A stretch of 64,000 bases of DNA from Escherichia coli (GTDB lineage: Bacteria > Pseudomonadota > Gammaproteobacteria > Enterobacterales > Enterobacteriaceae): assembly GCF_003334785.1 (NCBI RefSeq), contig NZ_QOWV01000004.1, one strand, 5' to 3'. Positions 612 to 20,220 of the stretch are shown here, in pieces; position 1 is the stretch's first letter, and each line of letters starts with the position of its first letter. The notes beneath the pieces are model-generated. The model worked only from the letters and a program-made list of their open reading frames with translations. It made no database searches and was not told the origin of the DNA. The translations under genes and the position numbers were made by a program.

Positions 612-2870
612 TTACTCTTCGCTATCACCGCTGCTGGCACGGCGAGGAGAGTCGATCTCAACACGATCGATACGCTGCAAACCGCGCATCAACGTACCGC
701 GGCGTCCACGTTCGCCAGTGACTTTCTGTAACTCTTCCGGGCGCAGTTTAATTTTGCGTTTCCCAACATGAATGGTCAGCGTGCTTTGCGGCGGCAGAAC
801 GTACAATTGCGCCAGACCATCTTCTCCACGCGCGGCTTCTGCCGATGGAATGTTGATAATCTTGTTGCCTTTGCCCTTCGACAGCTGCGGCAGATCACTT
901 ACCGGGAACATCAACATACGGCCTGCCTGAGTGATTGCCAGCAGCATATCGGAAGCATCTTCAATCACCACCGGCGGCATAACATGGGCATTTTCCGGTA
1001 AGGTGATCAAAGCCTTACCTGCACGGTTACGCGCCACCAGATCGTTAAAGGTGCAGACGAAACCGTAACCCGCATCGGAAGCCATCAGCAGTTTCTGATC
1101 GTCGCTTTCCATCAGCATATGGTCAACGGTCGCCCCAGGCGGCAACGTTAATTTGCCGGTGAGCGGCTCGCCCTGACCACGCGCCGACGGCAGCGTAATC
1201 GGGTCAATGGCATAGCTACGACCGGTGGAATCAACAAACACTACCGGTTGGTTGCTCTTACCTTTCACCGCCGCTTTGAAGCTATCACCCGCTTTATAAT
1301 TCAGGCCCGGCGCGTCGATATCATGGCCTTTAGCGCTGCGTACCCAGCCCATCTGCGACAGCACAATGGTGACAGGTTCAGACGGCAGCATGTCGTGCTC
1401 GCTCATCGCTTTCGCTTCTTCGCGTTCCTGCAACGGCGAACGACGATCGTCACCGTAGGCTTGCGCGTCTGCCTGCAGTTCTTTCTTCAGCAGGTTATTC
1501 ATTTTACGCTCGGAAGCCAAAATGCCCTGCAACTGGTCGCGCTCTTTTTCCAGTTCACTCTGCTCACCGCGAATCTTCATCTCTTCCAGTTTGGCAAGAT
1601 GACGCAGTTTCAGTTCGAGGATCGCTTCCGCCTGGGTTTCCGTAAGGCCAAACCGCGACATCAGCGCCGGTTTCGGTTCATCTTCATTACGAATGATCTC
1701 AATCACTTCGTCGATATTGAGAAACGCCACCAGCAAACCTTCGAGGATATGCAGGCGCTTGAGGACTTTCTCCAGACGATAGTTCAGTCGGCGGCGCACG
1801 GTATCGCGGCGGAACACCAGCCATTCGGAGAGGATTTCCAGCAGGTTTTTCACCGCCGGACGACCATCCAGACCGATCATATTAAGGTTAATACGATAGC
1901 TCTTTTCCAGATCGGTGGTAGCGAAGAGGTGGTTCATCACCTGATCCATATCCACGCGGTTGGAACGCGGCACAATCACCAGGCGGGTCGGGTTCTCGTG
2001 GTCAGATTCATCGCGCAGATCGTCAACCATCGGCAGCTTTTTGTTGCGCATTTGCGCAGCAATTTGCTCCAGTACGCGCGCACCTGAAACCTGATGCGGC
2101 AATGCGCTGATAACCACCGCGCCATCTTCTTTCTTCCACACCGCGCGCATACGCACTGAACCACGTCCGTTCTCGTAGATTTTACGGATCTCGGCGCGCG
2201 AAGTGATAATTTCCGCTTCAGTCGGATAATCCGGCCCCTGCACGATATCCAGCAGCTGATCGAGCGTGGTTTTCGGCTGGTCGATTAATGCGATTGCCGC
2301 CTGAGCCACTTCACGCAGGTTATGCGGTGGAATATCGGTCGCCATGCCGACGGCAATACCGGTGGTGCCGTTAAGCAAAATGTTTGGCAGACGGGCAGGT
2401 AGCATTTTCGGCTCCTGCAAAGTGCCGTCGAAGTTTGGCACCCAGTCAGCCGTCCCCTGCCCCAGCTCGCTCAATAGCAGCTCGGAATATTTCGACAACC
2501 GGGATTCGGTGTAACGCATTGCCGCGAACGATTTCGGATCGTCCGGCGCGCCCCAGTTCCCCTGACCATCAACCAGCGGATAACGGTAAGAGAACGGTTG
2601 CGCCATCAGGACCATCGCTTCATAACAGGCGCTATCGCCGTGCGGATGGTATTTACCCAGTACGTCACCGACGGTACGGGCCGATTTTTTAAATTTGGCG
2701 CTGGCATTCAGGCCCAGTTCAGACATCGCATACACAATGCGGCGCTGAACAGGTTTCAGACCATCACCAATAAACGGCAACGCACGGTCCATGATCACGT
2801 ACATGGAGTAGTTTAAGTAGGCGTTTTCCGTAAATTCATGTAGCGCAAGGCGCTCTGCCATATCGCTCAT
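612..2870 (-). CDS. parC: DNA topoisomerase IV subunit A
   Basis: 752-aa ORF; GyrA/ParC family N-terminus and QRDR segment [13 protein letters not shown]. Confidence 0.95.
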
Positions 2871-3007
2871 TAATTCTGATTCCTCAACTTATTCGCCAGC
2901 CTTCAAAGGGGCAATATTGCCGGAGATACTACATTATCTGCCGCGTCGAGTCACAGGAGATCAGCGTGAATAGCGCCGCCGGACGTGCTCCGACGGCGAT
3001 AAAGGCA

Positions 3008-4615
3008 TCAATGTGCCTTGATATACAACTCTTTGCTGTAGACATAATCCTGGGGATTATGCAGCGGAAAACCGCCAACGTAGGGTTTAAGCAGTTTGAT
3101 TAACGGCTGATAGTAGATAGGAATCAGCGGTGCCTGTTGGTTGATGATCACTTCTGCCTGCTGATACAACGCATTACGCTTTGTCGCATCAGTGATCTGC
3201 GTGGCCTGGTTTAGTAAGGCGTCATACTGCGCATTTTTCCAGTGACCGACGTTTTCTTCACTATCGCTTTTGAGCGTGTTCAGGAAGCTGGAAGCATCAT
3301 TGTACGTCGCATCCCACGACTGCCGAGACAGCATGAAATCACCGGCTCGTCGGGCATCAAGATAGGTTTTCCACTCCATTGTGCGCAGCGTCACCTGTGC
3401 ACCCAGCCATTTTTTCCATTCGGAAGACAACGCTATCGCGGTCTTTTCATGCAGATCGTACTTGTTGTAGAACAGCTCAAAGCGTAGCGGATGAGAGGCG
3501 TCGTATCCCGCCTGTTTCAGCAAGGCTTTTGCCATCGCGACGCGCTCACTCATTGGCTTTTGCAGTTCATCGAACGTCGTCGCGCTAAAGCCTTTTACCT
3601 CTGGCGGCGTCAGCGTGGTTGCGGGCGTTCTCAACCCCAGTACCTTTTGCGCAATAAGCTGTCGATCAACCGTAAGATATAGCGCCCGACGCACTCGCAC
3701 ATCGTTAAATGGCGGTTTCTCAAGGTTGAAGTTGTAATATTCGCTGTTCAGACGCGGAATAATTCGTAGCTCGCCAGGCAGTGATTTTTCAATGGCGGGA
3801 ATTTGCTGCGCCGGAACCCAGGTGAGATCGACCTCTCCCGCGCGATAGCGGTTATAGCCGGTGACCGAATTATCTAGCGCCAGATACTCAACCTGTTGCA
3901 ATACTGTATGTTGCGCATCGCGGTACTTTGGATTTTTGCGTGCAGTAATCTTTTCGTTAACTACCCACTGATCAAGCACAAAGGCACCGTTGTAAACCAT
4001 GTTCTCTGGCTTACTCCAGCTATCGCCATGTTTAGCGATGACATGATGAGGAACCGGGAACAGCGTCGGCCAGGCGAGCATCGTCGTGAACCAAGGAACC
4101 GGCTGCTCAAGCGTAACTTCAAGAGTACGATCATCCGTCGCTTTGACACCCAGCGATGTAACATCTGCTTTACCCGCAACAATAGCTGCGGCATTGTTAA
4201 TGTGCGCCTGTGCCAGATAGCCAGCAAAAGGGCTTGCCGTTTTCGGGTCAACCGCGCGCTGCCAGCCGAGGACAAAATCCTCTGCCGTCAGAGGCTGACC
4301 GTCGGACCACTGCAAACCGCTACGCAGATGGAAAATATAGCGCTTGCCGCCGTCCAGTATCTCCCAGCGTTCAGCCTGAGCGGGCTGCACCTGGCCTTCA
4401 CCGTCCATCCATACCAGACCTTCAAACAGATCCAGCACAATCTGCGCGGCAGTATTCTCCTCCACCTTTTGCGGGTCGAGCGTACCTGGGTCGCTATGAT
4501 TGTTGTAACGAAAGACTTGTTGCGGGGCGAGCGGTGTGTTGGCGGGAACGTCAGCAGCGTAGAGAGGAGCCGCACTTACCAGGCTGACCAGCCATAATAA
4601 ATTTCGCGTATACAT
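3008..4615 (-). CDS. ygiS: periplasmic solute-binding protein (oligopeptide/bile-salt binding family)
   Basis: ORF-track frame 3008..4678; start trimmed to MYTRNLLWLVSLVSAAPLYA (signal peptide), giving 535 aa. Confidence 0.85.
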   Translation of the reverse strand: MYTRNLLWLVSLVSAAPLYAADVPANTPLAPQQVFRYNNHSDPGTLDPQKVEENTAAQIVLDLFEGLVWMDGEGQVQPAQAERWEILDGGKRYIFHLRSGLQWSDGQPLTAEDFVLGWQRAVDPKTASPFAGYLAQAHINNAAAIVAGKADVTSLGVKATDDRTLEVTLEQPVPWFTTMLAWPTLFPVPHHVIAKHGDSWSKPENMVYNGAFVLDQWVVNEKITARKNPKYRDAQHTVLQQVEYLALDNSVTGYNRYRAGEVDLTWVPAQQIPAIEKSLPGELRIIPRLNSEYYNFNLEKPPFNDVRVRRALYLTVDRQLIAQKVLGLRTPATTLTPPEVKGFSATTFDELQKPMSERVAMAKALLKQAGYDASHPLRFELFYNKYDLHEKTAIALSSEWKKWLGAQVTLRTMEWKTYLDARRAGDFMLSRQSWDATYNDASSFLNTLKSDSEENVGHWKNAQYDALLNQATQITDATKRNALYQQAEVIINQQAPLIPIYYQPLIKLLKPYVGGFPLHNPQDYVYSKELYIKAH

Positions 4616-4747
4616 GGTATTCCTTACCGGAGAAATTATAAGCCCAACAACAATACGCCTGTGGCATTGTTCGCTCAAACTTATCGCGAGTGATTTGGCT
4701 CACACTCCGGTAAAGAAAAAAGCGAGTTGCCCCCGCTTTTCCATTAA

Positions 4748-5143
4748 TTAACGGATTTCATTCAATAGTTCTGGATGCTTATCCAGAACACGTAAAAGTT
4801 TGATTGTGGAAGGATGAGGTTGGGCATTGCCTTTTTCGTAACGCGAAAACGCATTTACACCTCCCCCAAAAATTTCGCTTGCCTCTTTTTGGGTAAGAGA
4901 GAGCTTTTTTCGAACCTTCACTATAAATTCAGGTGCCACTGTTTCGGCATTCACCGAAGCCCGAAATGCCTTTACTTGCGCCATGAAAGCATCTGACTCT
5001 TCTTTATTCATGATGCTCTCTTCGCAATGGACACAATATAAACCGTGGATACCTTTCAATACTGTTTTTCGTCCACGGAAGGTGTATGGAATATCTTTAA
5101 TGCCAGAAACCATTTCTCCCTGGTGGCAAACCGGACATTTCAT
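4748..5143 (-). CDS. mqsA: antitoxin / HTH transcriptional regulator MqsA
   Basis: 131-aa ORF MKCPVCHQGEMVSGIKDIPYTFRGRKTVL... with zinc-binding CxxC..CxxC N-domain; immediately downstream of mqsR. Confidence 0.9.
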   Translation of the reverse strand: MKCPVCHQGEMVSGIKDIPYTFRGRKTVLKGIHGLYCVHCEESIMNKEESDAFMAQVKAFRASVNAETVAPEFIVKVRKKLSLTQKEASEIFGGGVNAFSRYEKGNAQPHPSTIKLLRVLDKHPELLNEIR

Positions 5144-5144
5144 A

Positions 5145-5441
5145 TTACTTCTCCTTAAACGAGACGATCAGTACGTCATGAATTACCGTAATTTTAAGAT
5201 AAACCTGGCCTGTAACAAGCCTGGGTCTGTAAACATCCTGTCAGATAGTATGATCAGAGTAGGTGGTCATGCTTTTATAAAAGTCGCTCTCTGATAATCC
5301 AATGATAACATTACACATACCATCAAAATCCAAACCTAACTCATCTGCATTTAACAGGGCACTACGTGTTGTACGAACTTGCCCGGCATTGACAAGTTTT
5401 TTAACCTGACTCAAACGTGTATGTGGTGTGCGTTTTTCCAT
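5145..5441 (-). pseudogene. mqsR: mRNA interferase toxin MqsR, interrupted by in-frame TGA at codon 67 (plus-strand 5241-5243)
   Basis: ORF track gives only 66 aa (MEKRTPHTRLSQVKKLVNAG...TTYSDHTI*); reading on in the same frame past the TGA gives QDVYRPRLVTGQVYLKITVIHDVLIVSFKEK*, the expected MqsR C-terminus. Confidence 0.8.
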
Positions 5442-5470
5442 AACCCCCGCCTCCCTGTTACTTTAGTTAT

Positions 5471-5515
5471 AACCTAAAAGGTTAATTACAGCAATGAAAA
5501 AGCACCTAAAAGGTT
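5471..5515 (-). promoter_or_regulatory. mqsRA promoter with two MqsA operator palindromes (ACCT-N3-AGGT type)
   Basis: aACCTAAAAGGTt at 5471-5483 and cACCTAAAAGGTt at 5503-5515, 30-75 bp upstream of the mqsR ATG (5441). Confidence 0.6.
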
Positions 5516-5645
5516 AGTTAGATGTACGGAGATAGTGACCACACAAAACGTATTCTTTAAGGAAAGTGATTGACCATATAAGAAAGTGGCGCATTAGTAG
5601 CGCCAGTTTGAAGCAGGAATTTATAAGGGAAGCTGGAGTCAGGCA

Positions 5646-6128
5646 TCACGCCAACGGCACATAAACATCCGTTTCCAGTCGCTGCTCTGTCACCCCTTCG
5701 GCAAGATTGGTGTAGTGAAACAGAATCGGTGCTTTACGCATTTTCTCGCCGCTTGCAGGCAGCCAGTGGCGAATGATGCCCCATACCGTGTGTGAAATAT
5801 CGTCCAGCTCGCCAACGTGGCGGGCCACGGCATAACGTCCACCGGTAAGTTCACCATTGCTCACACCATAACGATTATCGGGAATCGGTTCGCTAACGCT
5901 GCCGCAGATATCAAAGCGAAACGCTTCCGGTGCGGTGGTGGCAGGGTCGTCCCAGGCGACGCCAAAAGTCTGGCTTTGGTTAACAGGAGAAAGCCCCGTC
6001 TCTTTACGCCACATGATAAATTTCGCCACGCTGTAGTTGAGCAATTCAGGGCTACAGCGGTGCGGCAACATCGCCACAGGTATTGATGGGAAATCGATAA
6101 TGTTTACATCCAGTGTCAGGTTTGTCAT
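5646..6128 (-). CDS. ygiV: GyrI-like/AraC-effector-domain family regulator
   Basis: 160-aa ORF, position and length as expected for ygiV next to mqsR. Confidence 0.8.
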   Translation of the reverse strand: MTNLTLDVNIIDFPSIPVAMLPHRCSPELLNYSVAKFIMWRKETGLSPVNQSQTFGVAWDDPATTAPEAFRFDICGSVSEPIPDNRYGVSNGELTGGRYAVARHVGELDDISHTVWGIIRHWLPASGEKMRKAPILFHYTNLAEGVTEQRLETDVYVPLA

Positions 6129-19446: not shown

Positions 19447-20220
19447 ATGTCAGTACCTCTCATTCTGACCATACTGGCGGGGGCAGCCACGTTTATTGGC
19501 GCGTTTCTCGGCGTTCTCGGGCAAAAACCCTCGAACCGCTTACTGGCGTTTTCGCTAGGTTTTGCGGCGGGGATCATGTTGCTCATCTCATTAATGGAAA
19601 TGCTTCCTGCCGCACTAGCAGCTGAAGGAATGTCGCCTGTGTTGGGTTATGGAATGTTTATCTTCGGTCTGCTTGGCTATTTTGGCCTGGACCGCATGTT
19701 GCCACATGCTCATCCGCAGGATTTAATGCAAAAATCGGTGCAGCCGTTGCCAAAATCGATCAAGCGCACAGCCATTCTGCTCACTCTCGGCATCAGTCTG
19801 CATAACTTCCCGGAAGGGATTGCCACCTTTGTCACGGCGAGCAGCAACCTGGAGCTGGGATTTGGCATCGCACTGGCCGTCGCGTTGCACAATATCCCTG
19901 AAGGTCTGGCAGTGGCAGGCCCGGTTTATGCGGCAACGGGGTCTAAACGCACCGCGATTCTGTGGGCGGGGATTTCTGGACTAGCAGAAATTCTTGGTGG
20001 TGTGCTGGCGTGGTTAATCCTCGGTAGCATGATTTCCCCGGTGGTCATGGCGGCAATCATGGCGGCGGTTGCAGGAATTATGGTGGCGCTCTCGGTTGAT
20101 GAATTAATGCCGCTCGCCAAAGAGATTGACCCTAATAATAACCCCAGCTATGGCGTACTATGTGGAATGTCAGTGATGGGATTCAGTTTAGTGCTGCTAC
20201 AAACGGCGGGAATTGGTTAA
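19447..20220 (+). CDS. zupT: zinc transporter ZupT (ZIP family)
   Basis: Start set at [20 protein letters not shown]..., 257 aa, multi-TM. Confidence 0.9.

Follow-up and report, generated by a model that had tools for sequence, protein, structure and literature searches.

In a 64,000-nucleotide stretch of Escherichia coli DNA (contig NZ_QOWV01000004.1 of assembly GCF_003334785.1, referred to below as the window), the toxin gene mqsR of the mqsRA toxin-antitoxin (TA) locus was predicted to be interrupted by an in-frame TGA at codon 67, next to an intact antitoxin gene, mqsA. Such a locus raises the question of whether the stop codon is real and, if so, whether an antitoxin and regulator without a working toxin is what remains. 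Coordinates of the relevant features, all of them on the minus strand, are collected in Table 1.

Table 1. Features of the mqsRA locus, in positions of the window
Feature	Position	Strand	Remarks
mqsR pseudogene	5145..5441	minus	98-codon frame plus TAA, broken at codon 67; RefSeq labels the identical sequence 'mqsR, pseudogene, internal stop'
Premature opal stop TGA, codon 67	5241..5243	minus	TGG (Trp) in K-12; mutated base 5241, next base C
Translated ORF, MqsR(1-66)	5244..5441	minus	retains Lys56 as well as beta2, the MqsA-docking strand; Pfam PF15723, model positions 1-63 of 95
3' part of mqsR past the stop (untranslated), codons 68-98 with TAA	5145..5240	minus	encodes Gln68, Arg72, Tyr81, Lys96 and Lys98
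Predicted sigma-70-like promoter within mqsR (TTGTTA, 16-nt spacer, TAAAAT)	5191..5218	minus	downstream of the stop
mqsA Shine-Dalgarno sequence AAGGAG (putative)	5151..5156	minus	7 nt upstream of the mqsA ATG; unchanged
mqsA, antitoxin and HTH-Xre repressor	4748..5143	minus	open, 131 aa, identical to K-12 WP_000650107.1
MqsA operator palindrome 1, ACCTTTTAGGT	5504..5514	minus	identical to MG1655
MqsA operator palindrome 2, ACCTTTTAGGT	5472..5482	minus	identical to MG1655

The codon 67 stop of mqsR and its carriers

The minus-strand open reading frame of mqsR starts with the ATG at 5441..5439, runs for 66 codons (MEKRT...YSDHTI) and meets the TGA at 5243..5241 (plus-strand tca), exactly where the original prediction had placed it, after ...TTYSDHTI. 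Beyond the stop the same frame reads QDVYRPRLVTGQVYLKITVIHDVLIVSFKEK and closes at the TAA at 5147..5145; a single base, 5144, sets it apart from the mqsA start codon (5143..5141), again as foreseen. When aligned to MG1655 over 6.8 kb, the window was mismatched at three positions. Within the 813 bp covering the mqsRA operon and its promoter, the sole difference was a G→A change at 5241 (coding strand), converting TGG into TGA. The proposal of a probable W67* change had assumed a tryptophan in the reference protein, and this was borne out by comparison with reference alleles: codon 67 is TGG in MG1655, and MqsR, both in K-12 and in the crystal structure PDB 3HI2, has 98 aa with Trp67, making the reference longer than the product encoded here.

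For a single-base change of this sort the relevant test is whether it is real or not, and chance is not at issue. The mqsRA locus was present in 2298 of 5426 complete E. coli genomes, always on the chromosome and nearly always in a single copy, with all copies at least 99% identical over 813 bp. A search with a 61-mer centred on the stop returned full-length matches at 100% identity in 14 complete genomes, and 16 scored at least 99%; the TGA allele is thus found in 14-16 of the 2298 mqsR-bearing genomes, the other 2282 being one base off in this search. Carriers originated from human faeces (Mexico, Switzerland and Ecuador), swine in China, hospital wastewater in Japan and chicken in South Korea, and further included an NCTC strain as well as isolates from lettuce and coriander. 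RefSeq/PGAP annotation of strain HSP425 and of the seven carriers that were compared over 40 kb (see below) recorded mqsR as an 'internal stop' pseudogene and mqsA (WP_000650107.1) as intact. Exact matches to the 66-aa product were found under several NCBI nr accessions, in at least 1000 contigs and in 2487 index blocks of public assemblies, metagenome assemblies among them.

A sequencing or assembly error in the window, with TGG as the true codon, had been raised from the outset, and single-base differences are the commonest kind of error. Its probability is negligible, because the same allele occurs in many independently sequenced genomes and assemblies: the base is shared by 14-16 complete genomes obtained across laboratories, countries and platforms, recurs in thousands of draft and metagenome assemblies, and is present in descendants carrying extra insertion sequences (IS). 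Independent sequencing of many strains has in effect supplied the resequencing that was called for, and it gives TGA. The TGA allele is genuine, heritable and circulating in a K-12-like E. coli haplotype.

Over positions 1-25272 the window was identical to strain H3, and it differed from that strain at 7 SNPs over 25001-64000; judged by this identity, it represents a close relative of H3. Each of seven carriers compared to H3 over 40 kb had 0-7 private SNPs, and no SNP except the TGA was common to them; the extra mismatches of SHP24 in this comparison corresponded to an IS2 at the edge of the locus. The same haplotype also occurs with TGG, in strains that differ by one mismatch over 25 kb. The near identity of the carriers and the sharing of their haplotype by TGG strains point to a recent mutation on a common K-12-like background.

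Two of the carriers differed at codon 80 of parC (window ~2631-2633), where B2 had S80I and Z1323CEC0010 had S80R, two independent changes, while the window itself was wild type at codons 80 and 84. Changes at ParC Ser80 are typical fluoroquinolone-resistance mutations.

Coding capacity of the truncated toxin gene

Toxins of the MqsR family are characterised by growth arrest and GCU-specific cleavage of mRNA. When the 66-aa ORF was searched against Pfam, the PF15723 (MqsR_toxin) match ended at model position 63 of 95, with 67.7 bits, falling short of a full-length family match, whereas the frame with codon 67 read as Trp covered positions 1-95 of 95 with 120 bits. The gene is mqsR by descent, and its product is an incomplete member of the MqsR family (RelE-like RNase fold). 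An NCBIfam search with the 66-aa and 98-aa versions of MqsR gave no matches, as that collection has no MqsR model, and Pfam was used instead. AlphaFold2 run on the single MqsR sequence reached a mean pLDDT of only 45.6, and strand boundaries were taken from the published crystal structure.

The predicted loss of active-site residues agreed with the position of the stop relative to the published mutagenesis. Alanine scanning identified K56A, Q68A, Y81A and K96A as substitutions that each abolish toxicity (PMC2791442), and in NMR and cleavage assays Lys56 and Tyr81 were strictly required for RNA cleavage, with K56A and Y81A abolishing it (PMC9636575). Lys56 lies before the stop, and Gln68, Tyr81 and Lys96 lie after it, leaving the catalytic pair of Lys56 and Tyr81 incomplete. 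Altogether, the stop removes residues 67-98, the C-terminal third of the fold, to which Tyr81, Gln68, Arg72, Lys96 and Lys98 belong; the substrate is bound by a cluster on the central sheet made up of Arg72, Leu82, Lys96 and Lys98 (PMC9636575). In view of the published order of the six-stranded sheet, b1-b3-b4-b5-b6-b2 (PMC2791442), the truncation should also take away strands b4-b6 and thereby the link between b3 and b2.

The 66-residue fragment should be non-toxic, because Tyr81 and nearly the whole active-site cluster are lost, and it is probably unstable as well, considering the published structure and mutagenesis. A functional type II TA module has an active toxin to neutralise, which this locus would appear to lack. 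The view of the locus as an antitoxin and regulator without a working toxin stands in so far as Tyr81 is lost and mqsA is intact; its wording may be too absolute, since the UGA-C could be read through by Trp-tRNA.

The antitoxin gene, its operators and internal promoters

The claim that mqsA is intact was confirmed. The gene showed no difference to MG1655, and its product scored 146.7 bits against the MqsA family model TIGR03830 of NCBIfam (curated cut-off 61.8) over residues 3-131, placing it in this family, and 43.7 bits against the YgiT zinc finger model TIGR03831; PF15731 was recorded on mqsA in related contigs. All four cysteines known as zinc ligands of MqsA (Cys3, Cys6, Cys37 and Cys40; PMC2791442) are present (MKC3PVC6...LYC37VHC40). 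The locus has the reverse TA gene order, with the toxin gene directly upstream of mqsA (frame end at 5145, mqsA start at 5143), and K-12 synteny is preserved. The operator palindromes, likewise predicted to be intact, were both found without change, providing the two ACCT-N3-AGGT promoter palindromes of an autoregulated mqsRA operon.

Among the TGA carriers, strain B2 (NZ_CP082327.1) displayed a C→A change at position 19807 (window 5466), just after operator palindrome 2. It falls in the apparent -10 element of the operon promoter, converting TATAAC to TATAAA.

A stop within mqsR also raises the question of whether mqsA is still expressed. According to Fraikin et al., most mqsA transcription is supplied by pA1 and pA2, two promoters within the mqsR ORF that are constitutive and not autoregulated and that together are stronger than the operon promoter pRA, and the second internal start site lies 111 nt upstream of the first (PMC6918082). 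In a promoter scan of the minus strand, TTGTTA-16-TAAAAT at 5218..5191 was the only sigma-70-like site, located 23 nt downstream of the stop; by its position and geometry it probably corresponds to pA1. The 111-nt spacing then places the second internal start near 5294, upstream of the stop and well downstream of the mqsR start codon. Given the predicted pA1 site and the start near 5294, the mutated base would fall outside both core promoters. Transcripts from both should therefore be independent of mqsR translation, and, going by the published promoter work, the supply of MqsA should be essentially normal. On operon-length transcripts the early stop could affect mqsA translation, either through loss of translational coupling or through Rho polarity across 97 untranslated nt.

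Taken together, these observations make it very probable that a single G→A change created a W67* opal stop and left MqsR dead and MqsA intact, in a TA module that is decaying toxin first. Mechanistically, the G→A transition at 5241 would have turned Trp67 (TGG) into an opal stop, with translation ending after residue 66. The resulting fragment would be missing the last three of the six sheet strands, unable to fold or to cleave RNA and thus non-toxic. MqsA would still be made from its own Shine-Dalgarno sequence, mainly from the constitutive promoters within mqsR, at least one of which would start transcription downstream of the stop. What would then remain of the locus is a self-repressing MqsA: there would be no toxin for it to neutralise, and MqsR would not be there to relieve the repression. 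At most, Trp-tRNA readthrough of the UGA-C would yield a trace of wild-type MqsR, and the module would be one in decay, having lost its toxin first.

Readthrough, decay and related loci

The extent of such readthrough is where the main competing explanation departs from loss of the toxin: UGA-C could be decoded by Trp-tRNA(Trp) often enough to yield low but physiologically meaningful amounts of wild-type MqsR, giving an attenuated module with possible cell-to-cell heterogeneity. The stop in the window stands in the context AUC-UGA-C and, with Trp as the wild-type residue 67, a readthrough product would be authentic MqsR. UGA is the leakiest stop codon of E. coli, and UGA followed by C at +4 is its weakest context, with documented inefficient termination (PMC5289835); readthrough of UGA mostly inserts Trp (PMC11126739), and its frequency in K-12 is ~ 2% at 37 °C and ~ 4% at 25 °C, varying between single cells (PMC10570021). 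However, a comparison of prfB between H3, the closest complete genome, and MG1655 revealed RF2 proteins that differ at residue 246 alone (Ala in H3, Thr in K-12). The Thr246 form of RF2 found in K-12 is a weak allele. Because H3 RF2 carries Ala246, readthrough in this lineage is probably below that of K-12, whose rates should be taken as upper bounds. Moreover, MqsA is already in excess through its constitutive promoters (PMC6918082), so that 1-2% of the normal amount of toxin would be neutralised, and descendants have tolerated IS2 insertions in the 3' remnant (see below), which suggests no selection to keep it. Traces of wild-type MqsR may be produced, probably amounting to under 2%, and a physiologically meaningful leak is unlikely.

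Less likely still is the stronger proposition that the W67 opal allele is not null and that authentic MqsR would come from a small, noisy fraction of ribosomes, on which the near-cognate tRNA puts back the original Trp, giving a strongly attenuated, stochastic toxin in place of a constitutive module, with a level that tracks readthrough conditions such as low temperature, carbon source or tRNA-Trp level. Should a leaky trace have a phenotype (persistence, phage tolerance or GhoT activation), this would be a case from nature in which the efficiency of termination sets the dose of a toxin. The Trp→UGA-C geometry, potentially leaky and self-restoring, is the only mildly interesting angle of this allele.

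It is highly improbable that the 66-residue N-terminal fragment retains a function of its own, for instance by binding the zinc domain of MqsA through beta2 (Val22-Thr25) and so modulating repression without toxicity. Most residues of the primary interface with MqsA (Thr24, Thr25, Arg26, Leu29, Phe39, Asp33 and Asp40) do lie within residues 1-66 (PMC2791442), and the 66-aa ORF was unchanged in most carriers examined, the exception being GCA_000461015.1 with one extra SNP. Nevertheless, without b4-b6 the beta2 strand loses its neighbours and a stable fold is unlikely, the interface residue Ile92 is lost too (PMC2791442), and conservation says nothing among carriers that separated so recently (0-7 SNPs per 40 kb).

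Programmed recoding, by selenocysteine insertion or frameshifting, has practically no probability: the stop is a UGA with a small hairpin 19 nt downstream (5221..5207), but this hairpin, with its 3-nt loop UUA, occurs in identical form in every TGG allele, meaning that nothing has co-evolved with the stop, and the alternative frames after it are closed. Selenocysteine and other recoding were rejected on the strength of this pre-existing hairpin and of an Rfam scan of positions 4700-5650 at E ≤ 10, which detected no SECIS or recoding element and only a chance snoRNA match (E = 4.7). A product reinitiated past the stop or made in an alternative frame was also rejected, with no in-frame Met available and the other two frames closing quickly.

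Returning to toxin-first decay, further lesions at the locus were found in public genomes. An IS1 was inserted near mqsR nt ~ 130 in HUM3355 (NZ_CP093317.1) and a different IS1 copy, of different size, near the same position in 203740 (NZ_CP025913.1) and the related ETEC O25 records H13-H18; in CUPF09 (NZ_CP182142.1) an IS1 was located at the mqsR 5' end. In all of these mqsA was intact. The TGA allele itself has been hit as well: HSP425 (NZ_CM136999.1, locus 1802-3131, corresponding to window ~ 5215-5221), GCA_964050785.1 and GCA_000351985.1, and probably also OZ547038, carry an IS2 of 1331 bp, with a 5-bp target duplication, at mqsR nt ~ 221-227, 21-27 nt downstream of the stop. The insertion sits in the untranslated remnant, across the -35 element of the predicted pA1. 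HSP425 has retained an intact mqsA, and the short loci of GCA_964050785.1 and GCA_000351985.1 end before that gene. In GCA_000461015.1 (TGA allele, locus 1499-1873), which has its extra SNP at mqsR nt 84, mqsA is cut short after codon 106 by an IS30-like element, so that the HTH domain lacks its final 25 residues; both genes are decaying in this assembly.

As a separate observation, the annotation of strain 203740 (locus 1-115) also lists the neighbouring ygiV as a pseudogene, owing to an internal stop.

Loss of the antitoxin first would be lethal, and a toxin-first order is what is expected when a TA module decays. The independent IS1 insertions and the later IS2 on the TGA allele fit the progressive, toxin-first decay of a dispensable chromosomal TA module, in agreement with the report that deletion of mqsRA has no detectable phenotype (PMC6918082).

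Set against known systems, the locus is by descent the type II mqsRA module of E. coli K-12 (b3022/b3021). It occupies the same chromosomal site (ygiV-mqsR-mqsA-ygiS) and is identical at 812 of 813 bases, with promoter, both operator palindromes, MqsA and the 1-nt intergenic gap all as in K-12. It departs from K-12 in having TGA rather than TGG at codon 67, and consequently a toxin of 66 out of 98 residues that is devoid of Tyr81 and most of the substrate-binding residues. The IS1-disrupted alleles of HUM3355, 203740/ETEC O25 and CUPF09 likewise combine a broken toxin gene with an intact mqsA (WP_000650107.1) at the same locus, although there the lesion is an insertion sequence and here a point nonsense change, the events being independent and in other strain backgrounds. 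A further parallel is provided by antitoxin-only remnants of type II systems, in which the toxin is lost or dead and the DNA-binding antitoxin is kept, such as higA, kept without a parE partner in E. coli K-12 and HS (PMC7232551). Unlike these, the toxin gene here is complete but for one base, reversible by A→G and potentially leaky.

The allele is already catalogued, both as an 'internal stop' pseudogene in RefSeq and as a 66-aa protein in nr, while a search of the literature collection available to the analysis for a natural mqsR W67* or pseudogene allele returned no paper describing it. The event is of a known kind, a nonsense mutation that costs a TA module its toxin and leaves the antitoxin, and the gene is a well-known one; it represents ordinary TA decay that matters little beyond bookkeeping. 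In practical terms, a working MqsR should not be assumed in strains of this lineage, which bears on claims linking mqsRA to persistence, bile salts, GhoT/GhoS and phage inhibition. Carriers also constitute natural mqsR-null, mqsA+ backgrounds and are possible controls in the dispute over toxin-independent regulation by MqsA. Recurrent lesions on the toxin side (the opal stop, several IS1 and later IS2 insertions, with mqsA usually spared) add one more data point for the dispensability of mqsRA and for toxin-first decay.

Elsewhere in the window, two type I toxin genes of the Ibs family (ibsD/ibsE-like) were located between yqiK and hldE, at ~ 30327-30386 and ~ 30702-30761 according to the H3 annotation.
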